This document shows, one piece after another, positions 2,046 through 32,293 of a stretch of 32,293 nt of DNA. Within the stretch, counting starts at the first letter, position 1. Every line of letters begins with the position of its first letter. The translations under genes were made by a program, and so were the position numbers. This stretch comes from an uncultured Neomegalonema sp. GTDB lineage: Bacteria; Pseudomonadota; Alphaproteobacteria; Rhodobacterales; Rhodobacteraceae. The notes below the pieces were generated by a model. The model ran no database searches, was not told the origin of the DNA, and was given only the letters and a program-made list of their open reading frames with translations. The DNA lies in contig CAZBIG010000001.1 of assembly GCA_964491865.1 (NCBI GenBank), forward strand, positions 1 through 32,293, read 5' to 3'.

Positions 2046-2078
2046 GCTTAGATCAGGGCGCTCTTTGGGGGCTGCGGA

Positions 2079-2735: not shown

Positions 2736-2850
2736 GGCGGCTTGCTCCCTCGAACCACCGCGCCGACGCGTTGAACAACCGCGCCGGCGCGTCAATGCGC
2801 CCTCGGCCGGCGCGCGCCCGCTTCCCCCCTCCGCGGGGCCCGCCCGTCGA

Positions 2851-3771: not shown

Positions 3772-3819
3772 CGGGATCTCCTTCGACTGCGGGGCGCCGC
3801 GGACGGGCGCCGGAACGAC

Positions 3820-4530
3820 TTACCGCCCGTCGCCGCGCGCAGCTTCGGCCGCGGCGCGAAGGGCGCTGATGTTGTCGGCGTAGGCGCTCGGCGCCGCCGC
3901 CGAGCCGCCGCGGAAGACGGCCGACCCGGCGACCAGCACGTCCGCCCCGACGGCGGCGACCATGGGCGCCGTTTCGGGGGTCACGCCGCCGTCGATTTCA
4001 AGGTGGATCGGACGGTCGCCGATCATTGCGCGCAGCGCGCGCGCCTTTTCCACCTGCGCGTTGATGAAGGACTGTCCGCCGAAGCCCGGGTTCACCGTCA
4101 TCACGCACACCAAGTCGAGCTTATCGAGCACATGCTCGAGCGCCGCGACCGGCGTCGCCGGATTGAGCGCCGCGCCCGCCTTCGCCCCGAGATCGCGGAT
4201 GCGCTGAAGCGAGCGATCGAGATGGGGTCCCGCTTCGGCATGCACGGTCACGATGTCCGCGCCCGCCTGGACGAACGCCTCAAGATAGGGGTCGGCCGGC
4301 GCGATCATCAAATGGACGTCCATCACGCCCTGGATATGAGGCCGGATCGCCGCGCAGGTCTGCGGACCGAAGGTGATGTTCGGCACGAAATGCCCGTCCA
4401 TGACGTCCACATGGACCCAGTCGGCGCCCGACGCTTCGACAGCCCGACACTCGGCCCCGAAGTTCGCGAAGTCCGCCGCGAGGATAGACGGGGCGATCTT
4501 GATCGATCGGTCGAACACGGGCGCGCTCAT
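3820..4530 (-). CDS. rpe: Ribulose-phosphate 3-epimerase
   Basis: KIAPSILAADFANFG...WVHVDVMDGHFVPNITFG...DVHLM...MTVNPGFGGQSF...EIDGG is the canonical Rpe TIM-barrel signature. Length is 236 aa. Confidence 0.93.
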   Translation of the reverse strand: MSAPVFDRSIKIAPSILAADFANFGAECRAVEASGADWVHVDVMDGHFVPNITFGPQTCAAIRPHIQGVMDVHLMIAPADPYLEAFVQAGADIVTVHAEAGPHLDRSLQRIRDLGAKAGAALNPATPVAALEHVLDKLDLVCVMTVNPGFGGQSFINAQVEKARALRAMIGDRPIHLEIDGGVTPETAPMVAAVGADVLVAGSAVFRGGSAAAPSAYADNISALRAAAEAARGDGR

Positions 4531-4650
4531 GGCGTAAAGGGCTTTCTGTGGCGCGCGCTAAAGGGCGCTGGCGAGGCGACGCCTCGCCTTGTGCGGAGAC
4601 CGACGGCCCCTTGTCAATCGCGCCGCCTGCTGCCGCCTGGCGCCGCCAGA

Positions 4651-4666
4651 TGTGCGGCAGCGCACA
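4651..4666. promoter_or_regulatory. TGTG-N8-CACA palindrome (weak CRP/FNR-like site or small hairpin)
   Basis: TGTGCGGCAGCGCACA has a perfect 6-bp inverted repeat, TGTGCG/CGCACA. It lies 121 bp upstream of the rpe ATG. Confidence 0.25.
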
Positions 4667-5080
4667 GCGGGTCTGCGGCCCGCCCGGATCGCGCCGCGCC
4701 GATCATTACGGACGACGCCGCGAATAGGTTGCAATACTCCCGGCTGTCGACCGCCCCCTTTGACAAACCGACAGAGTCGCCGCTCTCTCCAAATGCCCAA
4801 AGCGATCTCTAAATGTTTCGCACCCTCTGCAAAGCCACTTTGATTTTCAAGATCGAACATGGCTTGAGCATTCTTGAATTTTTCATTTCTACTATTTTTG
4901 TACGCTTCTCGATTTCGTACGCATTTACAAGAGTTTTTGCATCAAATCATACTTTAATCAATCTATTTTCCCGAACAAATTGGCGCAGAAATGCAAAAAC
5001 TTGAAATATCTTATTCGGTTGAACGCAAAAAAGCAATTCAACTGATCTCAAAGCCGTTTTTTTTGGCGCCTTATACATAC

Positions 5081-5096
5081 TGTGATCTAGATCACA
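5081..5096. promoter_or_regulatory. Perfect CRP-consensus palindrome TGTGATCTAGATCACA (CRP/FNR-family operator candidate)
   Basis: This 16-bp perfect palindrome, TGTGA-N6-TCACA, is identical to the symmetric consensus core of E. coli CRP sites. It sits at the 3' edge of the AT-rich island, 247 bp upstream of the giant-gene ATG. A -10-like TACAAC at 5113..5118 would put the site centre near -37 to -42 (class II-like geometry, speculative). Confidence 0.55.
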
Positions 5097-5332
5097 GCTC
5101 GTCTCGAGCATTTACAACTGCGAGAGACGGACGGTAAATCGGGAATTGGCAAGGAGTCGGTTGAGAATTCGACAGAGAGCGGGGCGCGGCCGCCTGAAAC
5201 TTCGGGGCGGCGGCGGGCTGATCGCCCGCGCGGCGCGGGACACGCCGCTTTCGGATCGCCTCAACGCCGACGACGACGAATAAGCGCGCTCGACCGGGGA
5301 CCTGCCCCGACAGCTCGAACGCCGCGGGTCTT

Positions 5333-5336
5333 GGAG
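5333..5336 (+). promoter_or_regulatory. Shine-Dalgarno (GGAG) of the giant gene
   Basis: GGAG is followed by the 6-nt spacer TTGACG and then ATG at 5343. Confidence 0.6.
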
Positions 5337-5342
5337 TTGACG

Positions 5343-8300
5343 ATGACCGATGATCGTTGGGTTGACGAGCGGTGGGACGATACCGAAGCGAGCGACGGGC
5401 GGGACGCCCGCGCGCCGGCCGCGCCGCCGCAGGCGATCGCCGCGCCGACGGATCCCGACGCCGAGGCCTCGCTTCACTTCGAGCAGATCGAACCGCGGGT
5501 CTTGCTGTCGGCGGATCCGATCACCGCGAGCACCGACGCCGCGGAAATCATCGTTCAGACCGAACAGCTTGAAGATTACGACGGCGACGGAACCGCGGAC
5601 TCGGCGCTGACCGTGCGCGACGGCGACGGGCTGCTGGTGAAGTCCTGGAACCTCGCGACCTTCGGGGGCGACGATGTCGGCGCCACCCTCGAAATCGACG
5701 GCGCCGCCCCGGACGCCGGCGTTTCGCAGACCCTGACGATCCTGCACAGCGACGAGCTTGCGCGCTATGTCGACGAAATTCGCATCGACGGGGTCGAACC
5801 CGGCGCGCCGGCGTCGGACCGCTCGGCGATCGACACGATCGTGTTCGACAGCGCCAACGAAAACTACGATCTGGGCATCGACGCGGACCTCGATCTGCTG
5901 ACCGGCCGTCTGGCGGTGCAAGGCCTGCTGGTGGCGTTCGACGGCGGCGTCCGCATCGAAACGCCGGACGTCCTGCGGTCGGTCGATGTCAGCGTGATCG
6001 CGGACCGGGTCGAAACCGACCCCGCCGGCGGCGCGTTCAGCGTCGCCGAGGCGCTCGTCGGCGGTTCCGCTGCGATTTCGGGCGCGGTCGGCCTGTCCAG
6101 CGGCGAGACGCTGATCGACTTCCTGCTGCCGACCAGCGTTCAAGAACTGACCTTCTGGGGATCTTTCGGCGCCGACCAGCTCGAGATCGGCGGGGCGGCG
6201 GCCGCGGTGTGGGCCGTCGAGGGCGAGGTGGCGGACACCGGCCTGTTCGGCGCGGTCGAGGGTCGATCGTCGCCGCGGCTGGCCTTCCAAGGGATGGACG
6301 CGTTCGTGGGCTCGGCGGGCGACGACACGCTGCTCGGCTACGATGTCGGCGGCGCGGGCCTGTGGACCGTCGAGGACGAGGGCGTCTTCACCGCGTATGA
6401 CGCCTCGTTCTCGGGCTTCGAGCGCTTCGAGGCCGCGGGCTCGGGCGACACGATCTACTTTAAGGAGAACGGTTGGCTGAGCGCCGGCTTCGACGGCGGG
6501 TCGGACGCGACGCTGATCCTCGAGAGCGCGATCGACGCGCTTTCGGTCGCTCTCGACGCGACCGGCGAGGGCGTGATGACGCGCGGCGGTCAGACCGTCG
6601 CCGTGTCCGGCGTGACGCTCGTTGAGCGGCAGGACGAGAACAACGTCACGATTTTGTTCAACGACACGGACAACAACGTGACGCTCTCGTACGGCTATTT
6701 CGACGAGACCGACCTTGAGGACGCGCGCGACGCGAAAAAACAACCGTTTACGGGGGGCGCCGGTTATTATTGGCGTGTAAGCGAACAGGGCAAGGACGAC
6801 CGCTTCTTCAAAACGCCGCAGAACACGATCCGCTTCGATCTCGGGGCCGGGGCCGACCGTCTGGTGGTCGAGTCGACCGACACGTCGTTCAGCGGCAATC
6901 TCATCATCAACGGCGGCGCGGACTCCACCGTTCCGATCTTCTCGGCGACGAACTTTACGGATCCGTTCAACTGGGAGTACGAAGGCGACGAAGTCGTCTT
7001 CAAATCGGACGTCTTCACCGGCGGCGGCGACATCAAGGTCCGGGCCGAGGAAATCTTCGTCCGCTCCGGGGTGGCGCTCGACACGCGCCGCGGCGTTCAA
7101 AGCAACGGCGCGTTCCGGTCAACCGGCGACTCCGGCAAAATCGACCTCTTCGGCGAGAAAATCAAACTCCGCACGAACAGCGCGCTGTTGGCTGGCGCGA
7201 CCGGCGCGTTCAGCGCCGGCGACGTGCTGCTCGAAGTCGAGGAGGAGACCAAGCGCTATTTCTTGTCGCCGATCTCGCTGGCGGAGCGGGTTGTCGAAAT
7301 CGACGTCGCTCAGGGGGCTCGGGTCGAGGGCGCCAATGTCCGCATGATCGCGCGGGCGACCGACCTCGGCAGCGCGAAACACGCGCAAACCAAAGATCGA
7401 GACGCCGACCAGCCCCGCTTCTTCAGCGGCGTCTACGACGACTTCCAAGTGATGTTCCAACAGTTCCCGATCGCCTTCCTGAACCCGACCGGGATGAACG
7501 CCAGCGTCGGGATCCGCCAGGCGGACGCTTTCGTGACGGTCGACGGGGCCAGCATCGTGGCGTCGGACAGCGTGAAGCTGCGGACGAAAACCGATGTGAG
7601 CGCGAACGTCCAGGCGTTGGTCTACGATTCCTACCTGAACCAGCAAGCCGAGGCAGGCCGGACGGCCGGAGACTCCAAGACCAAGGGCATGACGCCCGAA
7701 GTCGCCGTCGCCTGGTCGCAAGTCTTCACCGAGAGCAAGGCCGTCGTGAAGGGGGGGTCAACGATCGTCGCCGGCGGCGACGTCGACATCATCGCCCAAG
7801 GGGCCGCGAGTTCGACGACTCTCGCCCGCATGTCCACGAACTTGCTGAGCAACAGCTTTTACAAAAAGAACCCGCAAGACTTCTCGGCCGCGGCGAACGC
7901 GGACAACAAAACGGGTTATAACGGCTCTCTGTCGGACAAGCATCGATCTTTCGCCTTCACCACAGCTTGGGTTGAAGCCGATCTGACGGCGCAATTGCGC
8001 GACACCAGCTCGATCGTCGCCGGCGGGGCGGTGAACGTTCTGTCGACGGGCTCGGCCAAGGCCAAGGGCGAGACCTCGATGAGCCTGTACCTGAACGTTT
8101 CAGGCGGCGCGGGCACTGTGTTCACGATCGACAAGTCGAAATCGCGGGCGATCGTCGAAGGCGACATCACCGCCGGGGGCAAGTTGCAGTCCGGCAGCAC
8201 CTTCGACGCGGCGGACCCGTATACGATACACTTCGACACGCATCTCGATTCCTATGTGATCGAGATGAAAGATCACGGCTTCGAAACCGGCGACCAAATT

Positions 8301-26300: not shown

Positions 26301-29300
26301 CGGTTGGCGGACGGCGCGACCCGCGTCGACCGGCTGCGTCTCGACGGCCAGTCGGGCGGCGACGACTACCGGGTCTACACCGCGGGCAGCCTCGCCGACG
26401 CGCCGCAAGACTACACGGTCGACGTGCTCGACAGCGGGCGCGCGGATGACGGGGCCGACACGTTGAGCGTGTTCGGCGCGAGCGACGCGGCCAGCGGCGC
26501 GGACCCCAACATCGCGACGACCCGCGGGGAAGCGGACGGGTCGGCCGGCGCGGGCGACGACGTCTTCCTGCTGCGGGCGGCGACCGCGCTGCCGGGCGAA
26601 GACCTCGACGGGGCGCGGATCGGCTATGTCGCGCTGCTGCACGGCTCGTTGACCGACACGCGGGCGGGGACCGACGCGTCCGGCCAAGCGATGGACGATC
26701 GCGGCCAGCCGATCCAGCGCCCGAGCGAGACGGCGCGGATCAACTACACCAGCGCGGTGAACGGCCGCCTGTCGGTTTTGGGTCTGGGCGGCGACGACTA
26801 TTTCGCCAGCGACGACACGGTCGCCGCCACGACGCTCGACGGCGGCGCCGGCGCGGACGTGTTCCAGATCGGACAGCTCTACGCCTCGGCGCGGGACGCG
26901 GTCGCGGGCCTCGCCCCGTGGGACGCGTTCGCGACCACCGAAGTGAACATCGGCGTGGGGGTCGACGACGTCCAAACGGCGTATCTGAGCGCGGGCGCCT
27001 CGGCCCCGCTGTTGGCCAGCGGCGGCGACGGGAACGACGTGTTCTCGGTCTACGCCAACCAGGGCGTCACGCGGCTCGAGGGCGATGCGGGCGACGACGC
27101 GTTCAGCATCCGCGCCTTCGCGCTGACCAGCTCGGGCGAGATCACCCAGGAGATGACCGAGGTCGACGGCGGCGAGGGCGACGACCAGATCAGCTATCAC
27201 CTGAACGCGCGGGTCTCGATCGAGGGCGGCGAGGGCTTCGACAGCCTGATCGTGATCGGCACCGAGGCCGACGACAATTTCGTGGTGACGGCGGACGGCG
27301 TCTACGGGGCGGGTCTGTCGGTCGAAATGTCGGGCACCGAAGAGATTCGCGAAATCGACGGTCTCGAGGGCGACGACACCTTCTTCGTTCTTGGCACGGC
27401 CTTCGGCTCGGCGACGCGGGTGATCGGCGGCCTCGGCTCCGACACCTTCAATGTGGGGTCGAACGTCACGGAAGAAATCATTTCGCAAAGCATGACCGGG
27501 GTCGGCCGCTCGATCGGGCACGCGACGCGATCGGACGACGCGGCCTGGTCGACCCTGCCGGTCGACGGGGTCGACGTGACCGTGGCCGCCGCCGGCCGGC
27601 AGGGCTTGGTGTCGATCGAAGCCAGCGACGGGGCCACCGTGGTCGACGAAGCGGCGGCCGACGGCGCGCAGTGGGACAGCGTGTCGGTCCGGCTGACCGC
27701 GCGCCCGACCGAAACGGTGTATGTGACGATCTCGGCGGGGCGTTCCTCGCAATCGGAAGCCGACCGCGGGGCGGAAAGCCTGCTTCTGTCGACAACCGAT
27801 CCGCGCAGTCTCGGCGACCCGGCGGCCGGCTTCTTCGACACGGTCCTGGTCGACGGCGTCGCCGAGACCCGGCCGAACCACGACGTCGTGCTGGTTTTCA
27901 CGCCCGAAGACTATGACGCCGCCCAGACGGTCTACGTGACCGCCGGGGACGACGCCGCCAGCGAGGGCGTCAAAGACGCGGCGCTGTTCGCGACGACGCA
28001 GAGCGCCGACGCCGCCTTCGACGGCGCGCCGGTCGATCTCGAGCTCGTGACGATCCTGGACGACGACCGCGCCGAGATCGTGATCGAAGAGTTGGACGCG
28101 TCGGGCGAGAGCGACGGGGAAACCCTGGTCCTCGAGGGCCGCAACGCGCTCGAGGCGGTGACCGACCAGTACCGCCTCAGGCTCGGGGCGCCGCTCGCGG
28201 CGGGCGAGATCGTGACCGTGACGATCGCCTACGACGATGCGCGCCTGTCGCTGTCGGACGCCGACGGGCGCTTGGTCGAGAACGGCGACGGCACCGCCAC
28301 GCTGCGCTTCGAGCAAGGCGTCGCGGGCCGCGACGCCCATGACGCGGCGCTGGTGACCGTGGCCGCGATCGACGACGACGCGGCGCAGGGCGCGTCGTCG
28401 TCGGGGCTGATCCACACCTTTACGACCTCGCGGACGAGCGGGGCGTACTTCCTCAACCAAATGGTCGTCGACCCGCAGACCGGCGCGGCGACGCCGACGC
28501 AGAAACGGCTGGGCGTCGCGCTCCACGACAACGACGCGCCCCAGGTGCTGGCGCGCGAGACCGACGGCGGCCTCGTCGTCGTCGCGGACGGCCTCGACGC
28601 CGCGGGCCGGGCCCTCGGCGACGGCCGGACCGACAGCTACACGCTGCGCTTGAGCGCGCCCCCCGCCGAAACGGTCCGCCTCACATTCTCGGCGGACGGC
28701 GCGACGTCGATCGACCTGGCCGCCAGCAACGCGGCGGCGCGCGCCGCCGGCTTCGCGGGCGACCGCTTCGGCTACGTCGCGATCGGCGCGGCGGGGGCCG
28801 GGCTCAGCGTCGGCGACTTCGCGCTGACCGACGACGGCGCGGCGGCCCCGGCGCTCACCCGGCTCGACGGCGGATCGTTCCTGACCGACGGCTTCGAGGT
28901 GGGGCGGCGCGTCGCGCTGACCGACGCCGACGGCGCGCGCCTCGGCGCGTTGAAGATCCAGTCGATCAGCGCGGACGGCGCGCGGATCGTCTTCACCGAC
29001 GAGATCGACCTTTCGAGGCGGACCGCCGGCGCGACCACGACGCTGATCGGGGCGACCCTGACGCGGCTCGCGGTCGAAACGGCCTTTACGCCGACCGCCG
29101 CCGAGGCGTCGGACAGCGACGCGGCGGACGCCTGGTGGCGCCCGGTCGAGGTCGTCGTCGCGGCGGATCCGTATTTCGAAGAGCCCGAAGAGCAGACCGC
29201 GACGCGGCGCTTCGCGCCGACCGCGCACTCGACCTCGGGCGTCCAGGGCCCGCTCGAGATCGTGGGCGGGTTCGAGACCCAGCGCACGCTGGTCAACGCG

Positions 29301-32293
29301 GTGATCCTGTCGGGCGAAGCGAACGCGGGGCTCGCGGTGGTCGAGGTCGACGGCGGCGACGAGACCAGCGTCGACGTGCTGAACGTGTACGACGACGGGA
29401 GCACGGCCGACCGCGCCGGCGTTCTGACCGCCACCACGCTCAGCGGGCTCGGCATGGGCGGCGATTTCACGCTGTCCGACCCGGCTCAGGGGGCCGTCCG
29501 CACCATCCCGGGCGGGATCACCTTCGGCGCGGCCGACGATCCGGAGACCGACGCCGACGAGACTCGCACCACCATCGAGGTGCTGAACCTGTTCCTCGGC
29601 CAGGGCAACGACCAGCTGACCGTCGAAGGCGCGCTGAAGAACGCCGACGGCGCTTTCGGCGCCTTGACGGTCCTGCACGGCGGCGGCGGCTCGGACCGGT
29701 TCACGGTGACGGGCGGCGGCGGGGTCGACGCGCCGCTGGTGATCTTCGGCGACACCAGCCAGGACGGTTCGTGGTACACGGGCGCGCCCGGCCAGGCTGA
29801 TCGGATCACGGTCGCAGGAGCCGACGGCGCGCCGCGTCGCGCGCCGTCGGGCGCCGCCGCGGGCGCCGCCGGCGCCGCCGAGATAGACGCCCGCGCCCAG
29901 TTAGCCGCCGAAGCCGCGGCGGGCCGCGCCCCAGCGGACGGCCGGTCGGTGTACGCCGGGGCGGGCGACGACACGGTCTTCGGATCGTTCGCGGCGGACC
30001 AAATCGCCGGCGGCTCGGGCGACGACGTCATCATCGGCGACGGCGACGGATCAGGCGACCGGGCCGCGCTCGGCGGCGACGACCACATCTACGGCGACGG
30101 CGGCTTCAATCTCGACCTGTTCGGGCGCGCGCTCAGCGTGGCCGACATGGACGCCGAGGCGGCGACGGCGGGCGACGCCCTGACGGCGGGGGCCGACCGG
30201 ATCGACGCCGGGGCCGGCGCCGACATCGTCCATGCGGACTACGGCGTCGTCGACCTGGCGCAGGCGGGCGACCGCGACGCCGACCGGCTGCGGCTGCTCG
30301 GGACGGGCGACGTCGTCCGCGTCGAAAGCGTCGGACTGGACCGGCCGGGCGGGAACGACACGGTGCTCGGCGGCGCCGGGGACGACTGGGTTTTGGCCGG
30401 GGCGGGAAGCGACACGGTCGAGACCGGCGACGGCGACGACATTGCGATCGGCGGTCACGGGCGCCTGGTCTGGGCGGCGCGCGAGACGATCGCCGAGACG
30501 ATCGGCGCGGCCAGCGGCGCCGATCAGCTGCGCCTGGGCGGCGGCGACGACTGGGCGCTCGGCGGCGCCGGGGCCGACCGGATCGACGCCGGCGCCGGCG
30601 ACGACGTCGCGATCGGCGACGGCGGCCGGATCTTCGGGATCGCGGGCGCCGCCTCGGCCGAGGCCGTCGGCGCGGCCGGGGCCGACGACACGCTGCTGGG
30701 CGGGGACGGCGCGGACCGGCTGATCGGCGGCGCCGGGGCCGACCGGATCGACGCCGGCGCCGGCGCGGACGTCGCGCTCGGCGATCTCGGCCGGATCGAT
30801 CAGAGCGGCGGCCGGACGATCGCCGGCACGCTCGACGCCGCGCTGGCCGGCGCGCTGGCGTCGATCGGCGCCGCCGCCACCGTGATCGGCGGCGACGGCG
30901 CCGATTGGCTGATCGGCGGCGTCGCGGGCGACAGCATCGACGGCGGGGCCGGAGCCGACATCGCGATCGGCGACTTCGGCTTGATCGACGGCGAGCTCGG
31001 CGGCGCCGGCCGTCTCGAGGCGGTCGCGCGCGCCGATGTCGACGCGGGCGGCGACGACACGATCGCCGCGGGGCTCGGCGACGATCTGGCCTTCGGCGGC
31101 TCTGGGGCCGATCAGCTGATCGGGTCGGACGGGGCCGACGCGCTGATCGGCGACGACGGCGCCGCGATGTTCGCCCGATACGGCGCAAGCCAAGTCTCGG
31201 CGCGGTTCTCGAGCTTCGAAGGCGCGTTCGGCGGCGACGACCGCATCGACGGCGGGGCCGGCGACGATCTGGCGATCGGCGGCGCGGGCGCGGACCGGAT
31301 CGACGGGCGGGACGGCGACGACCGGCTGCTCGGCGACGCGGCGACGGCGCGGTTCGATCGGAACGGCGACCTCGCCGTCGAGACCGAGGCCGCGCCGGGT
31401 CAGGCCGGGGCCGATACCGTATATGGCGGGGACGGCGACGATCTGGCCGTCGGCGGCGACGGGGGCGACAGCCTGTCGGGCGGCGCCGGCGACAACGCGC
31501 TCGTCGGCGACGGCGCCATGGCGGCGTTCGAGCGCGGGCTGGGCTGGACCGCGATCATCGCGACCGAGACCGGCGCGGGCGGAGACGACCGCTTGTCGGC
31601 GTCCGATGGCGCGGACGTGCTGATCGGCGGGGTCGGCGCCGACATGCTCGACGCGGGCGGCGGCGACAATTTCTTGATCGGCGACGTCGGCCAACTCGAG
31701 CAGACCGCGGGCGCGACCCGTCTTTCGGGCGGCGACAGCGCCGACGGGCGCGACGGCGCCGACACGCTGGTGGCCGGATCGGGCGCCGACGCGATGATCG
31801 GCGGCGGCGGCGGCGACCGGATCGACGGCGGACGCGGCGACAACGTCGTTCTCGGCGACCAAGGGCGGCTCGACCTGTCCGACGGGCGTCTGATGATGGC
31901 GGCGACCAGCGCCTCCGCGGCCGGCGGGGCCGACACGGTCAACGGCGGCGCCGGCCGCGACATCGTGCTCGGCGGCGAGGGATCGGACATGGTGATCGCC
32001 GGCGACGATCGCGGCGGCGTCGAGGCGCGCGACGTGCTGATCGGCGACGGCGGCTATGTCGAAGCCGACGCGTCCGGCGCGGCGCGCCGCGCCGAAGCGG
32101 TCGCGGGCGGCGGCGCCGGCGACGACATGCTGGTGGCGGGCGACGGCGGCGGTCTGCTGATCGGCGGGGCCGGCGCGGACACTCTGGCCGGCGGGGCCGG
32201 CGCCGACACCTTGGTCGGCGACTTCGCCACCGCCCGGCGCGACGCGTCGGGCGGCGCCGAGATCGTCAGCGAGGACGCCAAACGCATCGCGCC
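5343..32293 (+). CDS. Giant (>=8,983 codons, 3'-truncated by window) repetitive LEPR-XLL/RTX-type secreted adhesin-like protein
   Basis: ATG at 5343 follows a GGAG Shine-Dalgarno; the in-frame upstream stop is TGA at 5043..5045. I translated 5343..13860 continuously and many later stretches in this frame (codon starts divisible by 3) and met no stop. The track lists no closed + ORF in this frame. All long minus-strand ORFs over the span are in the codon-in-register antisense frame, the typical shadow of a GC3-rich gene. The product is Asp/Gly/Ala/Val-rich with recognisable N-terminal LEPR-type motif, beta-solenoid-like repeats and RTX-like repeats. I met no Cys codon in the ~2,800 codons translated continuously. 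Confidence 0.93.
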   Translation, partial: MTDDRWVDERWDDTEASDGRDARAPAAPPQAIAAPTDPDAEASLHFEQIEPRVLLSADPITASTDAAEIIVQTEQLEDYDGDGTADSALTVRDGDGLLVKSWNLATFGGDDVGATLEIDGAAPDAGVSQTLTILHSDELARYVDEIRIDGVEPGAPASDRSAIDTIVFDSANENYDLGIDADLDLLTGRLAVQGLLVAFDGGVRIETPDVLRSVDVSVIADRVETDPAGGAFSVAEALVGGSAAISGAVGLSSGETLIDFLLPTSVQELTFWGSFGADQLEIGGAAAAVWAVEGEVADTGLFGAVEGRSSPRLAFQGMDAFVGSAGDDTLLGYDVGGAGLWTVEDEGVFTAYDASFSGFERFEAAGSGDTIYFKENGWLSAGFDGGSDATLILESAIDALSVALDATGEGVMTRGGQTVAVSGVTLVERQDENNVTILFNDTDNNVTLSYGYFDETDLEDARDAKKQPFTGGAGYYWRVSEQGKDDRFFKTPQNTIRFDLGAGADRLVVESTDTSFSGNLIINGGADSTVPIFSATNFTDPFNWEYEGDEVVFKSDVFTGGGDIKVRAEEIFVRSGVALDTRRGVQSNGAFRSTGDSGKIDLFGEKIKLRTNSALLAGATGAFSAGDVLLEVEEETKRYFLSPISLAERVVEIDVAQGARVEGANVRMIARATDLGSAKHAQTKDRDADQPRFFSGVYDDFQVMFQQFPIAFLNPTGMNASVGIRQADAFVTVDGASIVASDSVKLRTKTDVSANVQALVYDSYLNQQAEAGRTAGDSKTKGMTPEVAVAWSQVFTESKAVVKGGSTIVAGGDVDIIAQGAASSTTLARMSTNLLSNSFYKKNPQDFSAAANADNKTGYNGSLSDKHRSFAFTTAWVEADLTAQLRDTSSIVAGGAVNVLSTGSAKAKGETSMSLYLNVSGGAGTVFTIDKSKSRAIVEGDITAGGKLQSGSTFDAADPYTIHFDTHLDSYVIEMKDHGFETGDQITYQIGDSENPALASEIPGLTDGEEYFVLKESDDIFRLSPIAPIQMDVGAASSTSTHDLRRYETTTFMIDVVSDNTIDIGDHGFDDGDRVYYTHEGRAGSDLGLATDGTWHRVVAVNESAFKLIEESTYAALVENGAWLFDDSNLENINDDDFVEIKEGIGGLHRFYTAGQALSSAQGQQLKLVDHGFETGDVVSYTFAGAPGSELRYLEDGAERTLSHHGDAFDTEVQQYVVVVEDVSDTDGDASDYFRLVKIEDWPTVYEDPGLVDAFALDFSPTTEGGEHRFFAERNLAVEARAFRIAEISLSDAADNANTFYIPEHGFQTGDLVTYGPLEELNGSGSPRWILGPTLDLEYYVHVPDPVNDPDRLRLIEVTSIEDPTDLASFDRADAVELTVADGVDLLNEHFLHGARHVASFNPELVKGGDARNPDSGSIDPTRDALYFADGHGLATGDLVTYVTDQSVTNPVTFPHVAHHLSFDPRQSIAHGIEQATYELDVFINDDHLIDIDGGLENGDFVIYEARDNELGSLVDGARYRVLFNHLDGDGAPDPSRFVLIAEENWDDAFVADVAAANDVIERFGSANADNHSFTRYLFDDDIDGEAVGVVYMWGNSFQDGDLVTYRADPATGPIDGLTDGETYRVIFRSYTDAGRLDPDRFSLVEQSEWNRVGWEFGQPKNRLSAVEFGPASGNHAFVGTGDLRSIHDNALGIQYGEELGLKTGQKVQYWSGTYLETALGDADGVTFASDDTLFFEGHDLVDGDLVRYHHGGEAEDAISGLQIDQDIYRVINATEDSFQLVLDTDYQAALAAGDEVSSLAPIDTLGNDGELDLPNDHLFMKVVDTSIDGLVDQQYYYVIVDSENPGLLRLAETRDDALAGVAIEIVGHDPLSAVLGAAESLHELKLVVENEDDFDLGYFERKLIDFETPTGEAADYEISGLTLGEKYTVVVIDDHWIRLLTEDELLGADAASGILIEGRGAGDAHRFTLDGLRDGVQVEADLETKHIAKSKQEVGISFNWAKWKDFFKFGDVFASIFFMGSAYGTSQFYKPDPKQQENLQKQYEKETVKFAVSTGVTLVEQTVEALVGANAPEGETTDIVSGDAVIIRATSKQSSNHNVQSTLEKSKGKGGDLFAVAFGFAMIENTGRAVVGDQGRIDAAGDVTVTGKALNPFNVPIEYLFLGWQDHWASSGFSALSDRLDGNGGLGTIFLNNWVTSFAKGENTDDRSGSASTYALAVATNLYYNDAIAKVSSGARINRDIDRLTALGAAAKSDRSVEVRSVITEKFAFATGVAKTSYDIGLAAKFFAKKSASDVLKGAFRFRGAGAQRAIGAAIHVEVSKNNSHATIEAGAEITTGTAGDLKVIADEEIFRLALATAGGRAHEGFRDKADRGTLSAAGTVTWYDLASQVYAGIVTNDEAGVVVEGGDVLVKADSDVESVAISGIEISGDRNTVGISFTSSYSKRDVAAFIGARYDKYDDNPAENSVDGQARFDVGDVRVQSDSDGFIVSGSTAGTRSMDHSHYDFEQLAGDPERNEALSTVSAAQTTAPGRRPSYAPSTQADGLSAVAGGVTSSGSISLVYLGDDTFAYISDRGQWSVDDVDVSAKAGTSVATATGAAARTKKPKYTLEAPARTSGSTTIGGAVSINVVETATHAFVRDVDLEQRNADDAPVVTVKARRTGDINSFSAALAFDSVRYEEIAEVELIPDNSRSFAAANSMSFVKDEVNAQIVNASLSGEGTAAAGDLTVIAAHEGDVLGVGGGASYGTGAGAGGSLALNFVSASANAKIENSDIAVDGDVSVLARSDVDVHAVAISSGVVGKVADGQTNTRTSAFGSTVAVNWVDSDAALLDDEVDGRANLPDINATIANSRIVAGGDVIVEAQDDSRIASLAGAMAIGGTSFGWGSAISINVISTEVDAKIEGDSHVATLNGDVTLLAHSTTDELPRVPLPSLKVTFSFSTISGQRFVPYPSGGGVSGGKSPFNDGADSKIMTLGVSGAGGQGVTIGRSQSVNVITSKVRATVGDGVTIESGDDVEVLASDEAVIRSMNGAISVNLSAVAWRGAGYSAAMTSNVIDAATTARVEDATILAAGSVRVRADQAAQSHAIAFGASGGTAGASIGGSSLGGSVALATVLNTVIAHVGEGASVVAAEDVHVKAVNRGVGTAGAGALSAFAGAAGGSTAASVGNLTIINKTFARVDGDARIFAGAAGDGFDDLDGRTRHGVAVEAKSRYVFTVVSASGAVLIGASGAAFGGAANANVVEDRTKAYVTERSGAGAPTIRSLGDVAINARSEFEITSAAAGAGLSIGRGAGAGVEVTIASRQTAAYVASGGVIDAGGDVVVTAEADDQLMLLGLAYGGSLGRAGAVAFALDVGALALETTAKIGADARVTAIGNVAVTALSDVELDHAAGSLAVGIDAVPGISPATVSASGAATVVDKTTRAVIAEGAQVSALAQTDAIEVITGRITQGEAYDRTASREIQVDVDPTADLAADGVTINSASHGFLTGDEVLYVASARDMGDLVSGRSYVVVNADADSFQLAESADGPALSLTDGTLLGRNDIQTFSTVIEVAAPELSEDSEVPLEAAHRGDYVAETALRRGVIVAAASIDDLEIYATTGAMAISSASVAMTGSVSTHSIDTEAVIRQGARVNDPTAFARSVAPADVTGGAIDAWGHGLATGDRVVYAGASVADLVDGGVYAVIALDANRFALAAIDAPETPIALSAPSTAFTLTRADLPDAHSRQGVYVDAGRGHQITVVGAGVSASKLAAAGTAALSLPMLAGETYAAIEGGSGAVDTVVRAAGDVEVAAFAASVTVGFAVGGAGSVGMPALAGAATAATIDTDTIAQIAGQARVTAGGNVAVLAQDDTQVYSVAGAGAFSYGASAGSGAISTVIIQKDTKASIEGAFVDAMGAGPSTVGGVTDGGYDETGAPGAVDGVRGVVVDASSREIIEAIAVGTAAAGAGFTLSGSVVHVFADSDTAAFVRDAQINQNTGPGAHAEQSVLVGARNMLDATAGAGGLSVQMAGVAVGAAFGVVTFRNDTTAFIGHEGLAGDTSEVRAADTVAVRAVGDQKLNNVVAAGAISPLFIGAAGAFAVVSVGQDAQKDWSDGQGNVGSLSEAQATTSSENSGDVVGESDEALGNFSGGYEATAPEGLALDAGAVETADIGLVPGATYVVIAADGDVFQISDAEGGAPITIDIDAMTAEERYLFTTAEGARLSFTADDTAIDASGQVDGGLFFIADSALQVGDQLTFEAPGRVYLTEENGQRAGSGWSTGALVVYDSGASAALSGLVDGAAYYVIADEELEGGVRLADSYENALAGIGVSISAGEGDGHRLIRALPTFDPAGPRVDEATGAIDLEYDFGLSTGDLIRYSASDGEALGGLVSGRAYFAVVDAEDPTKIRLAGSRDDAFAGAHIAFTVGDASGAAHTLTPIGDTGGGINSGAALSMDGLGRQSAAPSLEALVLSTPKTSGVTAMIWSDVVIDAADLEVTATLDSDLDVTATGVGMGGAQPAGGVGVGIGISTVVVNNDVTAEVVAGSGALDGRTTRLNGAGALDVTADYRGSVDAVAVSGAGAFVAAAGSAVVIQDSSDVKALLGTGAQDASQGVAVTGFDAVTVAADGRLRAGTFASHLMRAGGGLGASVVDVRTSGDVIAAVGPHGRIGTPGDTIGDLTVSATRAMSNDQVDALDDVFDRDASSMALGGSAALIGAVGMAATAIDRGDAVAEIRENARVDATGVLTVAADASAHVRATAAALQFGLKHAAGVVVTRAESRGDARARILGQDGAPAETDAPAIRAGGVSVTAQADNRAKSSGSSLAIGATIAAYNQSDAVVSGDVTALIGDHAHVVAAAGGVLVGATGRLHGEAVISGATVSYGSVAAGQARTDVSGGDVAAAIGAGAIVRAAAGVGVQARFEAAEDGRAAYAETLAGSGDLVGLNLHWAEARSDVDSTARVGAGAIIDGGAGAVGISAVSHRNTAEARGDSVALAALAVGQIATNSEARGEARAEIASGSSAGDGVVIRGAGLSITADQAASADTTNKKAAGGVVGTVHVAPATADAIVDATALIGDHAQIAVDGDLTLASDAKAEADARIFAAAASLGANITVSDGEVEVRPTVKTRIGAYADLAADAVTITATANDFDKTPFDDRISTVDIAANRLTVNGDAAGHGLVDGQLVLYDAGGAAGLASGDPAANDLDDPANAHLHLDETRANTALESGRLYRALVDSATTFQFGEEFAGVDIDDATDTITFVDDAGVPRAHSFRDGDVVRYYAVDGVAAPGLEDSADGESAAYEVIVVSATQIQLRPAFDAPFAASHGFDPSKVYDAETGELVEAETEAERSVRDSVITLDGHGFRDGQAVVYTAPEASAFTGGGVDAVTDSEGALVYDADGAQVYGDDDTLYLGQNDYQDGEEVVYLGVSGVEFQTRDVDLDASSTRITAINHGFSTGQTVQYVAAEHDAGDEVSVRTTTERFYTIGDVEHVLDGATVSEAKSKALGGLALDGEYMVIVHDANTISLQQVATAPDGTPLVDVNAALSLSAPAFDGAVTHYLTPTTIAVEAEDGGTTFQPTETIDGLDSGRRYVVKHFDATGTRVQLFERTIDTRFETDPEIVEDTGERHVYDSVGDVTVAFGESAGALGASAPHIFDLAGHGFAEGEVVRYSAATAAITGLVEGADYVVSLSHPDGRALDGANQFVLLDGPGGALVEATALAAGGGDAHSFESVRQLEAVIYEARSVTREIAETPSVDFAAGPIALSAAAEDRQSGAVHSLKRPGARAIDGLISGVTYYADVLDADRLRLATTAQDAAADRFITLDATGVSGLHGLGAIRVDLARDDAGATHRLAIDFSETPSGADAHRLLSSSGLPLNLRATASGDGQSSVSFTTGSGALVGDVSVNQGDLRQVVTSEIDIFASEIAARGDVTVGSRAKTDALADGDALSTALIATVGSNHVEADVDTISRVVIGGVDPTRSDAGAIGTRIASAGDVTITTDADTEAYVATERAAGGLIGVNVAGGRLTVGYASDIVLGAGEIAAPGDLTVAARASTEGRATTRSDTGGLVPVATAYATVKIEGGGANGARLDIARDGAMRLSGGKVALAAETRELTAKAKARAGSYGVIGGVRAEADVEADVENTVRLRSGAEVQADSGLDITAASDKVATKADANATLTTFIISADALADNSTRVDALVQADDGAATIVAPGADADALTVRADRGEVNADADANRRVPTIKIKIKTPWKTYKIRIELAGGKRDNDTKKSGEEQIVWNADIAAARGEAPILLINENREIEQLSGFVVNQVSGRGATRLDEGAAFEAGADIQVERVSTGSESRVVFEAETISGSGGEASLSPTLGSVYIVNRSDLDLIVETLDLADDDPELTIEAVGDSSLSFAATTREVLSTDLLIQNTHAGADLTLAGTIDNGVGATRLITAGGAILSSGSGQRLETNTLTVETGGAAGDVGDASARLSIDLVSSADREAAIDIQASGAIFLDLGVIARKAGAAGPIAFDATRIWAAGDAADLRLRTAIHQQPGTASGRITGVNVAAPGQLQAPTAARGGGGDTAVALDLSFGAQSGLGLRSSGIVSIERADAALGTDPAIDIDAVVSAPAQSGAVYVVTDGDVALSAFASALPVGQVVSTFGDVTLTADAITDAESDGAAIEPGAWFDGAYGPADVVGGAISLFAGAGGVGAAAQHLEIDAGYSGAGAASATAAGSVYLADTSGDFLVASIRAEGATPETARVVLNALDGSLLGLGGEGPSVTAHAIDLRAAGAVGSATEAFLVDAGVLAGGTPSDGQVGAEGVDGVHLADSDGALRVLQAVSSGGDVRLVTRDLAAAEGQDEDVVLLGSGDSHAVEGGATRIDGGRIEAAGAVVVRAGDDVVSEAGTLISAGQTVEIYGDDGDADAGYGARILLSGTLRAGAAASGVKSVDQAVSVFGGADADRITLFETTLEAQTNVYGSASAIASTTADGRDRLEAVRLRTITTESRLADGATRVDRLRLDGQSGGDDYRVYTAGSLADAPQDYTVDVLDSGRADDGADTLSVFGASDAASGADPNIATTRGEADGSAGAGDDVFLLRAATALPGEDLDGARIGYVALLHGSLTDTRAGTDASGQAMDDRGQPIQRPSETARINYTSAVNGRLSVLGLGGDDYFASDDTVAATTLDGGAGADVFQIGQLYASARDAVAGLAPWDAFATTEVNIGVGVDDVQTAYLSAGASAPLLASGGDGNDVFSVYANQGVTRLEGDAGDDAFSIRAFALTSSGEITQEMTEVDGGEGDDQISYHLNARVSIEGGEGFDSLIVIGTEADDNFVVTADGVYGAGLSVEMSGTEEIREIDGLEGDDTFFVLGTAFGSATRVIGGLGSDTFNVGSNVTEEIISQSMTGVGRSIGHATRSDDAAWSTLPVDGVDVTVAAAGRQGLVSIEASDGATVVDEAAADGAQWDSVSVRLTARPTETVYVTISAGRSSQSEADRGAESLLLSTTDPRSLGDPAAGFFDTVLVDGVAETRPNHDVVLVFTPEDYDAAQTVYVTAGDDAASEGVKDAALFATTQSADAAFDGAPVDLELVTILDDDRAEIVIEELDASGESDGETLVLEGRNALEAVTDQYRLRLGAPLAAGEIVTVTIAYDDARLSLSDADGRLVENGDGTATLRFEQGVAGRDAHDAALVTVAAIDDDAAQGASSSGLIHTFTTSRTSGAYFLNQMVVDPQTGAATPTQKRLGVALHDNDAPQVLARETDGGLVVVADGLDAAGRALGDGRTDSYTLRLSAPPAETVRLTFSADGATSIDLAASNAAARAAGFAGDRFGYVAIGAAGAGLSVGDFALTDDGAAAPALTRLDGGSFLTDGFEVGRRVALTDADGARLGALKIQSISADGARIVFTDEIDLSRRTAGATTTLIGATLTRLAVETAFTPTAAEASDSDAADAWWRPVEVVVAADPYFEEPEEQTATRRFAPTAHSTSGVQGPLEIVGGFETQRTLVNAVILSGEANAGLAVVEVDGGDETSVDVLNVYDDGSTADRAGVLTATTLSGLGMGGDFTLSDPAQGAVRTIPGGITFGAADDPETDADETRTTIEVLNLFLGQGNDQLTVEGALKNADGAFGALTVLHGGGGSDRFTVTGGGGVDAPLVIFGDTSQDGSWYTGAPGQADRITVAGADGAPRRAPSGAAAGAAGAAEIDARAQLAAEAAAGRAPADGRSVYAGAGDDTVFGSFAADQIAGGSGDDVIIGDGDGSGDRAALGGDDHIYGDGGFNLDLFGRALSVADMDAEAATAGDALTAGADRIDAGAGADIVHADYGVVDLAQAGDRDADRLRLLGTGDVVRVESVGLDRPGGNDTVLGGAGDDWVLAGAGSDTVETGDGDDIAIGGHGRLVWAARETIAETIGAASGADQLRLGGGDDWALGGAGADRIDAGAGDDVAIGDGGRIFGIAGAASAEAVGAAGADDTLLGGDGADRLIGGAGADRIDAGAGADVALGDLGRIDQSGGRTIAGTLDAALAGALASIGAAATVIGGDGADWLIGGVAGDSIDGGAGADIAIGDFGLIDGELGGAGRLEAVARADVDAGGDDTIAAGLGDDLAFGGSGADQLIGSDGADALIGDDGAAMFARYGASQVSARFSSFEGAFGGDDRIDGGAGDDLAIGGAGADRIDGRDGDDRLLGDAATARFDRNGDLAVETEAAPGQAGADTVYGGDGDDLAVGGDGGDSLSGGAGDNALVGDGAMAAFERGLGWTAIIATETGAGGDDRLSASDGADVLIGGVGADMLDAGGGDNFLIGDVGQLEQTAGATRLSGGDSADGRDGADTLVAGSGADAMIGGGGGDRIDGGRGDNVVLGDQGRLDLSDGRLMMAATSASAAGGADTVNGGAGRDIVLGGEGSDMVIAGDDRGGVEARDVLIGDGGYVEADASGAARRAEAVAGGGAGDDMLVAGDGGGLLIGGAGADTLAGGAGADTLVGDFATARRDASGGAEIVSEDAKRIA
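5472..5519 (+). other. LEPR-XLL-type N-terminal motif
   Basis: The translation is LHFEQIEPRVLLSADP (residues ~44-59). The L-E-P-R-x-L-L-S-A-D signature is known (from memory) as the LEPR-XLL N-terminal domain of very large repetitive secreted proteins. Confidence 0.7.
6990..8200 (+). repeat. Solenoid-like repeat block 1 (GDx-x-V-x-A type); boundaries approximate
   Basis: Recurrent motifs are GGGDIKVRAEE, SAGDVLLEVEE, AGGDVDIIAQG and AGGAVNVLSTG, separated by Ala/Ser/Thr-rich strands. Confidence 0.5.
8271..11260 (+). repeat. HG[FL]xTGD repeat cluster 1 (about 10 units); boundaries approximate
   Basis: Cores verified by hand: DHGFETGD 8271..8294, DHGFDDGD 8538..8561, DHGFETGD 8850..8873, EHGFQTGD 9252..9275, GHGLATGD 9633..9656. 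Degenerate units are GLENGDFVIY, SFQDGDLVTY, LGLKTGQKVQY and HDLVDGDLVRY. Each core is followed by xVxY, then GLxDGxxYxV, then FxL(A/V). Confidence 0.75.
11281..11500 (+). other. Lys/aromatic-rich, lower-GC junction segment
   Basis: The translation is EADLETKHIAKSKQEVGISFNWAKWKDFFKFGDVFASIFFMGSAYGTSQFYKPDPKQQENLQKQYEKETVKF. Its composition is very different from the acidic repeats on either side. Confidence 0.5.
11500..15700 (+). repeat. Solenoid-like repeat block 2 (~53-aa period); boundaries approximate
   Basis: Example: AGDLTVIAAHEGDVLGVGGGASYGTGAGAGGSLALNFVSASANAKIENSDIAVDGDVSVLARSDVDVHAVAISSG. The G-D core at 13518 recurs at 13677, which is 159 nt or 53 aa. Confidence 0.65.
15760..16500 (+). 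repeat. HG[FL]xTGD repeat cluster 2 (2 units)
   Basis: First unit: SHGFLTGD at 15795..15818 (INSASHGFLTGDEVLYVASARDMGDLVSGRSYVVVNADADSFQLAES). Second unit: GHGLATGD at 16317..16340 (GHGLATGDRVVYAGASVADLVDGGVYAVIALDANRFALAA). Confidence 0.8.
16560..17700 (+). repeat. Solenoid-like repeat block 3
   Basis: AAGDVEVAAFAASVTVGFAVGGAGS is followed by TAGGNVAVLAQDDTQVYSVAGAGAFSYGASAGSGAISTV. The core spacing from 16707 to 16872 is 165 nt, or 55 aa. Confidence 0.65.
17790..18600 (+). repeat. HG[FL]xTGD-type repeat cluster 3 (about 3 degenerate units)
   Basis: GLVPGATYVVIAADGDVFQISD occurs at 17802 onward. DFGLSTGD lies at 18390..18413 and is followed by LIRY...GLVSGRAYFAVVDAEDPTKIRLAGS. The cluster also contains SALQVGDQLTF and GLVDGAAYYVIAD. 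Confidence 0.65.
18700..20700 (+). repeat. Solenoid-like repeat block 4
   Basis: Verified by hand for 18720..18960: DLEVTATLDSDLDVTATGVGMGGAQPAGGVGVGIGISTVVVNNDVTAEVVAGSG. Similar units follow (GDLTVSAT, GVLTVAADAS, AGGVSVTAQAD, DGDLTLASDA), but those were read less rigorously. Confidence 0.6.
20740..22900 (+). repeat. HG[FL]xTGD repeat cluster 4 (about 7-8 units)
   Basis: Cores verified: GHGLVDGQ 20817..20840, AHSFRDGD 21096..21119, GHGFRDGQ 21372..21395, NHGFSTGQ 21645..21668, GHGFAEGE 22269..22292. Confidence 0.75.
22950..23990 (+). repeat. Solenoid-like repeat block 5
   Basis: ARGDVTVGSRA (~23085), SAGDVTITTDA (~23277) and PGDLTVAARA (~23433) give core spacings of about 52-64 aa. Confidence 0.55.
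24000..24130 (+). other. Lys-rich alternating-pattern junction segment
   Basis: Verified translation: NRRVPTIKIKIKTPWKTYKIRIELAGGKRDNDTKKSGEEQIVW. It is locally lower in GC. Confidence 0.5.
24200..26250 (+). repeat. Second solenoid-like repeat class (~86-aa spacing)
   Basis: GGAISLFAGAGGVGAAAQHLEIDAG...GSVYLADTSGDFLVASIRA is followed by AHAIDLRAAGAVGSATEAFLVDAG...GVHLADSDGALRVLQAVSSGGDVRLV. The A-I core at 25371 recurs at 25629, which is 258 nt or 86 aa. The style resembles FhaB/large-exoprotein beta-helices. Confidence 0.5.
26780..27460 (+). repeat. GGxGxDxF calcium-binding-like units
   Basis: Verified units: LGGDDYFAS, DGGAGADVFQIG, GGDGNDVFSVY, GDAGDDAFSIR, DGGEGDDQISY, GGEGFDSLIVIGTEADDNFVVTADGV, GLEGDDTFFVLG, GGLGSDTFNVG. 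Confidence 0.6.
27540..28700 (+). other. Two to three Calx-beta/cadherin-like beta-sandwich modules
   Basis: Module 1 is verified: WDSVSVRLTARPTETVYVTISAG...VVLVFTPEDYDAAQTVYVTAGDDAASEG...LELVTILDDD. Later modules read YRLRLGAPLAAGEIVTVTIAY...VTVAAIDDDAAQG...VALHDNDAP and SYTLRLSAPPAETVRLTFSADG. The pattern (xYxLxLxxxPxxxVxV ... QTVxVxAxDD ... DDD/DND) is typical of such adhesin modules. The family assignment is not verified. Confidence 0.45.
29955..32293 (+). repeat. RTX-like (GGxGxD) calcium-binding repeat region with ~55-aa super-repeat, open at window end
   Basis: Verified start: AGAGDDTVFGSFAADQIAGGSGDDVIIGDGDGSGDRAALGGDDHIYGDGG. Units of the form GGxGxDxLxGGxGxDxIDxGxGxDxxxGDxGxI plus a ~20-aa linker then continue to the last codon of the window. 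A 42-bp perfect direct repeat occurs at 30559..30600 and 30724..30765. Confidence 0.8.

Follow-up and report, generated by a model that had tools for sequence, protein, structure and literature searches.

Can a reading frame that stays open over some 27 kb of bacterial DNA be a single gene and, if so, what does it encode and by which route could a product of that size leave the cell? These questions are raised by a 32,293-nt stretch of DNA from an uncultured Neomegalonema sp. (contig CAZBIG010000001.1 of GenBank assembly GCA_964491865.1; the whole stretch is referred to below as the window), whose plus strand carries such a frame from position 5343 onward. We conclude that the frame is one real plus-strand gene that continues past the end of the window. 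It joins a known and widespread class, the LEPR-XLL proteins, as a divergent new member, and its size is notable rather than exceptional, as relatives reach 12,918 amino acids (aa). The explanation that we consider best, and probable as a whole, is that of an intact LEPR-XLL giant gene whose product would form an extracellular fibre and would be exported by a machine of the type encoded downstream of the genes of its relatives.

A Single Gene of 27 kb

Complete translation of positions 5343..32291 gave 8,983 codons without a single stop, and the frame remains open to base 32293. About 181 stops would be expected from the base composition, and the probability of meeting none by chance is about 3e-79. 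A preliminary description of this DNA had reported both the absence of stops up to the window edge and an ATG at 5343 preceded by GGAG at a distance of 6 nt, and both observations were confirmed. It had placed the opening of the frame after TGA 5043..5045; that codon exists, but a later in-frame stop, TAG 5088-5090, is the final one ahead of the gene, which leaves the start unaffected. Between this stop and position 5500, the only in-frame start codons are TTG 5331, TTG 5337, and ATG 5343.

The coding signal of the frame was compared with that of the neighbouring genes. The guanine plus cytosine contents at the first, second, and third codon positions (GC1/2/3) are 0.70/0.51/0.89 in the giant plus frame and 0.72-0.77/0.49-0.53/0.86-0.89 in the four upstream genes. 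Codon-usage log-odds, trained on those four neighbours, reach +0.55 bits per codon in the giant plus frame versus at most 0.05 in the remaining five frames, the antisense ones included. The earlier claim of one giant plus-strand gene therefore stands, as codon-position composition and codon usage resemble those of the neighbours in this frame only, and as curated families and colinear homologues cover most of its product. The same description had ranked the protein among the largest bacterial gene products. At about 9,000 residues it does belong to the upper tail, but it is not near the record, since proteins of more than 30,000 aa have been reported (West-Roberts et al., bioRxiv 10.1101/2023.11.21.568195).

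The giant gene is missing from the program-made list of open reading frames (ORFs) because that list skips ORFs running off the sequence end; this had been supposed from the beginning, the list's own description agrees, and the omission is a property of design, not of biology. Over the span of the gene, the list holds 19 other ORFs of at least 200 aa. An annotation that followed it naively would indeed turn one 27-kb gene into spurious proteins, although these would be about 19 ORFs of this size and not the ten or so antisense proteins foreseen at first. The long antisense ORFs have GC1/2/3 values of about 0.9/0.5/0.7, which mirror the pattern of the giant gene. Within the span, the in-register antisense frame contains 19 stops and the other two minus frames contain 183 and 237, and the giant gene contains 4 TTA, 2 CTA, and 13 TCA sense codons, that is, 19, equal to the number of in-register antisense stops. 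The openness of the antisense ORFs is fully explained by the presence of only these 19 rare sense codons. They are shadows of a GC3-rich gene, as had been suggested, and their interpretation as true genes was rejected because their codon statistics are wrong. The more general statement that every long minus-strand ORF lies in the one in-register frame holds for the eleven ORFs that had been listed, but not for four others of at least 200 aa (starts at 22685, 28772, 29486, and 30133). Five further ORFs of at least 200 aa lie on the plus strand, off the giant-gene frame.

Membership in the LEPR-XLL Class

By the models that define the class, the predicted giant protein is a LEPR-XLL protein. The match to NCBIfam NF012209 (E 1.3e-7) covers the whole 24-position model and places the motif at residue 49 of at least 8,983, and a motif of the form (L/M/I)EPRxLLSAD is found at residues 1-70 in eight relatives. 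Five relatives are encoded on plasmids, namely the proteins of Methylosinus sp. C49 (WP_161915219.1, 8,847 aa), Pseudosulfitobacter sp. DSM 107133 (WP_114295156.1, 12,918 aa), Pontibrevibacter nitratireducens (WP_205793450.1, 10,603 aa), and Alisedimentitalea scapharcae (8,148 aa), and the product of an unannotated ORF of about 9,000 codons in Ensifer adhaerens; those of Pseudosulfitobacter and Pontibrevibacter are annotated as 'LEPR-XLL domain-containing protein'. The closest relative is an ORF in a metagenome-assembled genome (MAG) of the Hyphomicrobiaceae, which aligns without a break to residues 3734-7923 at 38.8% identity (4,382 columns). A Hyphomicrobiales MAG matches at 34% identity over residues 5482-8672 of the giant protein, residues 604-4033 are colinear with the Methylosinus protein, and residues 6970-8981 align to residues 8156-10170 of the Pontibrevibacter protein. 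Together with the 70% GC, the two MAG matches would suggest that the DNA comes from an alphaproteobacterium resembling the Hyphomicrobiales.

With the N-terminal 1,200 residues as query, an exhaustive HMMER search of 1.84 billion cluster representatives gave only 70 matches at E <= 0.001. These matches, mostly fragments, cover query residues of about 240-1200; the longer ones are about 26-33% identical, and several carry LEPRxLL near their own N-terminus. Among the best full-length matches, no relative exceeds about 33% identity over this part of the protein. Residues 1-1500 found no match in a word-index homology search.

The module at residues 6970-7480 is the most conserved of the family, with 34-40% identity to four plasmid relatives in pairwise BLASTP and 44-46% in a trimmed MAFFT alignment. 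Scanning GTDB species-representative genomes with this one module yielded 255 loci in Proteobacteria, cyanobacteria, Planctomycetes, Actinobacteria, and Chloroflexi. Of the 80 loci kept, 74 had an ORF that had not yet closed 10 kb ahead of the module; those genes are therefore giant too. The LEPR-XLL protein type is thus widespread and has been named by annotation pipelines, yet it is experimentally unstudied, and the class was scarcely mentioned in the literature searched.

Public records often present such genes in pieces. The 57 database proteins matched by the conserved module all fall short of 900 aa (300-900), although the contigs of many measure 25 kb to 3.5 Mb, and on contig_135814 of ENA ERZ25039459 a frameshifted relative is broken into about 10 called genes in three frames, with no export cassette of the kind described below seen beside it. 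Since public gene calls often shatter the relatives, the LEPR-XLL family is under-counted in protein databases. A further relative was found on a plasmid of the Gram-positive actinobacterium Rhodococcus antarcticus (coding sequences 3420-23663 and 26795-33364 of the retrieved record L009), where it is annotated as a 'hypothetical protein' of 6,747 aa. It showed 33.5% identity in tblastn, with 71% of query residues 6001-8100 covered, and its annotated C-terminal tail is rich in Pro, Arg, and Ser, which suggests a frameshift in the record.

The end of the giant gene lies past the window, and neither exact look-ups of three proteins encoded upstream nor exact 44-nt DNA searches of genome and metagenome collections gave a match from which it could be recovered. 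Residue 8981 aligns to Pontibrevibacter residue 10,170 of 10,603, and the Hyphomicrobiales MAG protein stops 250 residues past the position matching residue 8672. For 59 related GTDB loci the stop is visible, at 362 to 3,332 residues past the conserved module (median 2,306); in the giant gene, 1,503 residues past it are already visible. Judged by these end positions of relatives, the full protein probably comprises 9,300 to 10,500 residues, and the true stop would probably be found from a few hundred to about 1,500 codons past the window.

At least two types of C-terminal tail occur among the relatives. In the first, a hydrophobic stretch is followed by basic residues, as in Pontibrevibacter (record L006, 9043-40854; ...GGVALVAAGVTVASQRRERTKR) and the Hyphomicrobiales MAG (...GGVLIGAVACTRGRVQGERR...). 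In the second, found in Pseudosulfitobacter and Ensifer, the protein has an amphipathic ...GLL(K/S)RL(G/V)SLF... end. The giant protein of Methylosinus ends in LamG domains.

Organization of the Visible Protein

The features of the giant gene and its product are collected in the table, together with the neighbouring genes and the export cassettes of the relatives. The visible protein contains no cysteine in 8,983 residues and is strongly acidic (Asp plus Glu 15%, Lys plus Arg 6.4%), with Ala and Gly making up 29%. The motif is preceded by a 48-residue acidic leader. No N-terminal hydrophobic segment or signal peptide was detected, the maximal 19-residue hydropathy being 0.68 in the first 70 residues, and the only hydrophobic stretches elsewhere in the visible protein are two marginal ones rich in Ala and Gly.

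Table. Features of the giant gene, its neighbours in the window, and the export cassettes of related loci
Feature	Residues	Coordinates	Strand	Basis or remark
Ribosome-binding site GGAG		5333..5336	+	6-nt spacer to ATG 5343; read from sequence
Giant protein, partial coding sequence		5343..32293	+	0 stops in 8,983 codons; GC3 and codon log-odds; colinear homologues over most of length; cut by window end
LEPR-XLL motif region, IEPRVLLSADP	44-67	5472..5543	+	NCBIfam NF012209, 30.9 bits vs cut-off 17
Conserved N-terminal beta-rich module	about 240-960	6060..8222	+	HMMER homologues; long beta strands in AlphaFold2 model
HGF modules, first cluster, 11 copies	970-1952	8250..11198	+	Motif scan, iterated self-HMM
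Beta-solenoid-type filament repeats, block I	2055-3437	11505..15653	+	LktA_tand_53, self-HMM; colinear with Methylosinus protein over 1659-3636
HGF module pair	3478-3707	15774..16463	+	Motif scan, self-HMM
Filament repeats, block II	3760-3899	16620..17039	+	Best LktA_tand_53 match; self-HMM
HGF modules, three	4144-4403	17772..18551	+	Motif scan, self-HMM
Filament repeats, block III	4511-5075	18873..20567	+	Three weak self-HMM matches only, domain E-values 3.8e-2, 1.2e-7, 1.1e-3
HGF modules, seven to eight	5153-5804	20799..22754	+	Motif scan, self-HMM
Most conserved module of the family	6970-7480	26250..27782	+	Irregular DGGxGxD repeats; beta-roll-like model
RTX calcium-binding nonapeptide region	about 8100-8983	29640..32291	+	Pfam PF00353; continues at window end
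Helicase-like protein, C-terminal third		77-1945 (runs off window start)	+	Anti-phage ProA NF058533, positions 1124-1715/1903
Phosphoglycolate phosphatase		2079-2735	-	TIGR01449, 222 bits vs cut-off 180
Metallo-beta-lactamase-fold hydrolase, twin-arginine-like N-terminus		2851-3771	-	AidB lactonase-related; below cut-off
Ribulose-phosphate 3-epimerase		3820-4530	-	TIGR01163, 271 bits vs cut-off 212.6
Export cassettes of related loci (retrieved records, L numbers)		L002 9891-18567; L005 681-8478; L006 1225-9046; L007 25796-31744; L008 33800-41630		Also in many of L012-L089

Most of the protein is built from two kinds of repeat. An unnamed module of about 57 residues, called here the HGF module, was recognized in about 20 copies by a motif scan and an iterated hidden Markov model (HMM) built from the protein itself (self-HMM); it reads HGFxTGDxVxY, then GLxDGxxYxV, then FxL, and is kept in the relatives. 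The filament repeats are matched by NCBIfam NF012206 (LktA_tand_53) at 178.1 bits versus a cut-off of 50, in 10 stretches, and the corresponding self-HMM gave 24 matches, at residues 790-900, 2055-3440, 3760-3900, and 4510-5075 and at a few later sites. For residues 480-1200, the AlphaFold2 (AF2) model consists entirely of beta structure; very long strands extend to about residue 960, the mean predicted local distance difference test score (pLDDT) is 68, and the modelled part reaches into the first HGF modules.

The conserved module at residues 6970-7480 was modelled at a pLDDT of 72 and a predicted TM-score of 0.77, with a short strand at intervals of 9-10 residues; in Foldseek, RTX blocks of CyaA ranked highest, none of them at E <= 0.001. 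Toward the visible C-terminal end, where all nine stretches matched by Pfam PF00353 are located (115.4 bits versus a cut-off of 23), 25 GGxGxD-like motifs follow residue 8000. This RTX region consists of super-repeats of 55-63 residues, with a DNA repeat spacing of 165-189 nt and at most 84% identity. Pfam detected no domain besides RTX across the 8,983 residues, and a search of PDB chain sequences with residues 1-8086 gave no matches.

A Putative Export Cassette Downstream of Related Giant Genes

The most interesting lead comes from the relatives and lies beyond the window. In each of the five plasmid relatives named above, genes for HlyD-GAF, M50-PqqD, and SecA-like proteins are located directly downstream of the giant gene and on its strand. 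The first encodes a HlyD-type adaptor of about 620 aa with a GAF domain. The second encodes a protein of about 713 aa that begins with a PqqD-like domain, continues with a daptide/M50-related intramembrane protease region (HExxH), and ends in a HlyD-like tail. The third encodes a SecA paralogue of about 660 aa that has DEAD, preprotein-binding, and P-loop domains and is devoid of the wing/scaffold domain. A small DUF3467 protein is usually encoded as well, and SapC sometimes. A short adaptor of the membrane-fusion protein (MFP) type is present in four of the five, none being annotated in Alisedimentitalea, and TolC is annotated in Methylosinus only. No ATP-binding cassette (ABC) transporter is found beside the giant genes of these five relatives.

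The linkage recurs beyond plasmids. Among the 53 GTDB loci in which at least 1 kb is visible past the stop, cassette genes follow the giant gene in 36. For the Pseudosulfitobacter and Pontibrevibacter SecA-like proteins, Pfam reported SecA_DEAD (E about 1e-97), SecA_PP_bind, and P-loop_SecA, and the Pontibrevibacter protein also matched SecA in NCBIfam, which holds no dedicated model for any cassette protein. In the full-text literature, no account of the SecA-like/HlyD cassette was found, the coverage of that search being incomplete. Comparison of the cassette proteins with the window by tblastn gave no matches; the window ends inside the gene.

The SecA-like gene bears misleading names in public annotation. 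In Pontibrevibacter (L006 2785-4770) it is labelled 'DEAD/DEAH box helicase', and in Pseudosulfitobacter (L005 1514-3538) and Methylosinus (L002 12173-14089, assigned by position only) the label is 'prepilin peptidase'.

Proposed Mode of Action and Competing Explanations

In the mechanism that we propose, the giant protein would leave the cell unfolded, without the use of Sec or twin-arginine translocation (Tat), and extracellular calcium would fold it into a long fibre, which may act as a surface or matrix adhesin. The absence of cysteine and of a Sec or Tat signal, the acidity, and the calcium-binding beta-roll and solenoid repeats fit unfolded crossing and folding outside, by analogy with RTX adhesins. 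Going by the relatives, export would be carried out by a dedicated tripartite machine encoded just downstream, with energy supplied by the stand-alone SecA paralogue lacking the wing/scaffold domain. The LEPR-XLL leader would serve as the recognition signal for this machine, and the PqqD-like M50 intramembrane protease with its HlyD-like region may recognize and perhaps cleave it. The conduit would be formed by two membrane-fusion proteins and TolC, resulting in a type I-like system with an N-terminal signal, in which a Sec-type motor replaces the ABC transporter. Such a route of N-terminal signal, SecA motor, and adaptor/TolC is favoured because the LEPR-XLL motif is conserved among the N-termini of the relatives, while their C-termini are not conserved. 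In this full detail, with the giant protein as the substrate of an undescribed proteobacterial export system composed of a wingless SecA motor, PqqD/M50 leader recognition, and an MFP and TolC conduit, the proposal is a tentative one, and we consider it possible rather than probable.

Several observations weigh against this account. The window ends inside the gene, and the C-terminus and the downstream genes lie beyond it; in the 5.3 kb upstream, no gene belongs to a secretion system. The cassette is lacking in 17 of the 53 GTDB loci, which belong mostly to cyanobacteria, Planctomycetes, Actinobacteria, and Chloroflexi, although three are proteobacterial (Methylomicrobium, a betaproteobacterium, and Marinobacterium). 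The leader ahead of the LEPR-XLL motif is acidic in the giant protein, whereas it is basic in the relatives. Neither of the two AF2 models (residues 480-1200 and 6970-7480) has a Foldseek match at E <= 0.001, and the members of the LEPR-XLL family, as predicted proteins, are known from sequence alone. Moreover, RTX repeats near the C-terminus are what classically characterizes the substrates of ABC-dependent type I secretion.

Classical type I secretion is the main rival for the export route. According to it, the protein would be an RTX adhesin of the LapA/SiiE/MpIBP kind, exported C-terminus first through an ABC/HlyD/TolC system whose genes lie elsewhere, and the LEPR-XLL region would serve a different purpose, for example cell-surface retention. 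RTX repeats that occupy 880 residues or more at the visible C-terminal end suit such a substrate, as do the acidity and the lack of cysteine and of a signal peptide. A Vibrio protein of about 8,000 aa with an N-terminal LEPR-XLL motif and C-terminal RTX/serralysin domains has likewise been read as a secreted RTX protein (PMC10868602). However, relatives with a colinear RTX region (Pontibrevibacter) adjoin the SecA-like/M50/HlyD cassette and no ABC transporter, and a C-terminal signal is at odds with the unconserved C-termini and conserved N-terminal motif of the relatives. The giant protein also has neither a LapG-type retention module nor tandem near-identical immunoglobulin (Ig)-like repeats. 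The 5.3 kb ahead of the giant gene contain no ABC transporter, HlyD, or TolC gene; any such genes downstream, like an uncleaved C-terminal secretion signal following the RTX block, would lie beyond the window. On balance, we regard classical type I export as less likely than not, yet as a serious alternative.

A pore-forming RTX cytotoxin, instead of a structural fibre or adhesin, is very improbable. Such a function was speculated on for the Vibrio protein (PMC10868602), and the giant protein shows weak, sub-threshold matches to RTX hemolysin models (NF033943, 77.6 bits versus a cut-off of 1000). These matches, however, cover the nonapeptide repeats only; the visible 8,983 residues contain no hydrophobic pore-forming domain, only the two marginal stretches mentioned above, the window contains no acylation region or RtxC-type gene, and solenoid or small-module repeats make up more than 90% of the visible length.

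Hardly credible is the view that the frame is not one functional gene at all, being an assembly chimera, a repeat collapse, or a decaying pseudogene in which some antisense ORFs are real: repetitiveness and the frequent fragmentation of related genes in public assemblies (the 300-900 aa matches on long contigs and the ENA contig with about 10 called genes) could speak for it, but against it stand 26.9 kb without a stop, unbroken alignments to independent genomes, the longest of 4,382 columns, whose colinearity argues against a chimera, internal repeats only 26-41% identical in protein and at most 84% in DNA, which make repeat collapse unlikely, and antisense ORFs with the wrong codon-position composition, at most 0.05 bits per codon, and an openness that stems from 19 rare sense codons.

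Other identities were also considered. A two-partner secretion exoprotein of the FhaB type was rejected, as neither a two-partner secretion/haemagglutination domain (Pfam, NCBIfam, E <= 0.01) nor a hydrophobic N-terminus is present. A nonribosomal peptide synthetase or polyketide synthase megasynthase was dismissed in the absence of condensation, adenylation, ketosynthase, or carrier domains, RTX being the only Pfam hit. An autotransporter is unlikely, as there is no Sec signal peptide; the position of a C-terminal barrel would lie past the window. A transmembrane giant of the Omnitrophota type was rejected, the visible protein having no convincing transmembrane helices and no SecA domain.

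The Upstream Region

The intergenic region of 812 nt at 4531-5342 probably regulates the giant gene, to judge from its composition and motifs. It includes a strongly AT-rich stretch, especially at about 4800-5120, within a window of about 70% GC; the GC content of positions 4001-5000 is 0.61. One sigma-70-like promoter match was found, at 4924-4953. A perfect 16-bp palindrome, TGTGATCTAGATCACA, is located at 5081-5096, about 250 nt upstream of ATG 5343, and corresponds to the CRP-type consensus TGTGA-N6-TCACA. Even when one mismatch is tolerated, the window contains no second match; at that setting, 11 of 100 shuffled sequences contained at least one match. This palindrome may be a candidate site for a cyclic AMP/CRP-family regulator of the giant gene.

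Further upstream, the three minus-strand neighbours (2079-4530) are, by their predicted functions, ordinary housekeeping genes, none of them a secretion gene. The helicase-like gene at the window start matches ProA at E 1e-237 and 792 bits, which is below the cut-off only since the gene is truncated, and it also matches Hhe. By this match, a defence gene precedes the giant gene by about 3.4 kb.

Comparison with Known Systems

The giant gene adds a divergent member to its family; the window stops before the gene end. Like the LEPR-XLL giants of model NF012209, also named 'LEPR-8K', its product is very long and repetitive, within a class of 8-13 thousand residues, carries the motif at the N-terminus, and has filament repeats, HGF modules, a beta-roll-like module, and an RTX region in identical order. 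The difference lies in divergence, as identity is only 25-40% over the aligned parts. The C-termini of these giants vary, from LamG in Methylosinus to the hydrophobic tail in Pontibrevibacter, whereas that of the giant protein is past the window.

LapA of Pseudomonas, SiiE of Salmonella, and MpIBP of Marinomonas are giant, acidic, cysteine-poor, repetitive proteins without a signal peptide and with C-terminal RTX repeats. They possess near-identical Ig-like repeats and an N-terminal retention module, and the genes of their ABC, MFP, and TolC components are adjacent. The giant protein resembles these type I RTX adhesins in its chemistry and C-terminal RTX region, and both would presumably form calcium-dependent extracellular fibres. 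It differs from them in its diverged solenoid repeats and HGF modules and in its LEPR-XLL N-terminus, and its relatives differ in adjoining a SecA-like/M50/HlyD cassette without an ABC transporter.

The conserved module resembles the RTX beta-roll blocks of CyaA from Bordetella (PDB 6sus, 7usl, and 9p0c; Foldseek probability 0.6-0.9, TM-score to target 0.42-0.51), with which it shares strands every 9-10 residues. In contrast to CyaA, its DGGxGxD motifs are irregular and 30-60 residues apart, the E-values fall short of 0.001, and no PDB match exists at the sequence level.

That a wingless SecA paralogue, an M50 protease, and HlyD-type adaptors (with TolC in one relative) recur beside such genes offers a testable route for a 1-MDa protein without a signal peptide, and it ties in with an independent proposal. 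In giant Omnitrophota and actinobacterial proteins, wingless SecA-like domains were described and proposed to export the proteins that contain them (West-Roberts et al., bioRxiv 10.1101/2023.11.21.568195). Those systems and the loci of the relatives have in common a giant protein and a SecA DEAD/preprotein-binding module without scaffold and wing. In the Omnitrophota and Actinobacteria giants, however, the SecA-like domains are built in and accompanied by many transmembrane helices, neither of which the visible giant protein has, whereas in its relatives the SecA-like ATPase is a separate protein in a cassette with HlyD-type adaptors and, in one case, TolC. By this analogy, the cassette of the relatives would be a stand-alone version of the SecA self-export idea, joined to HlyD-type adaptors and TolC.

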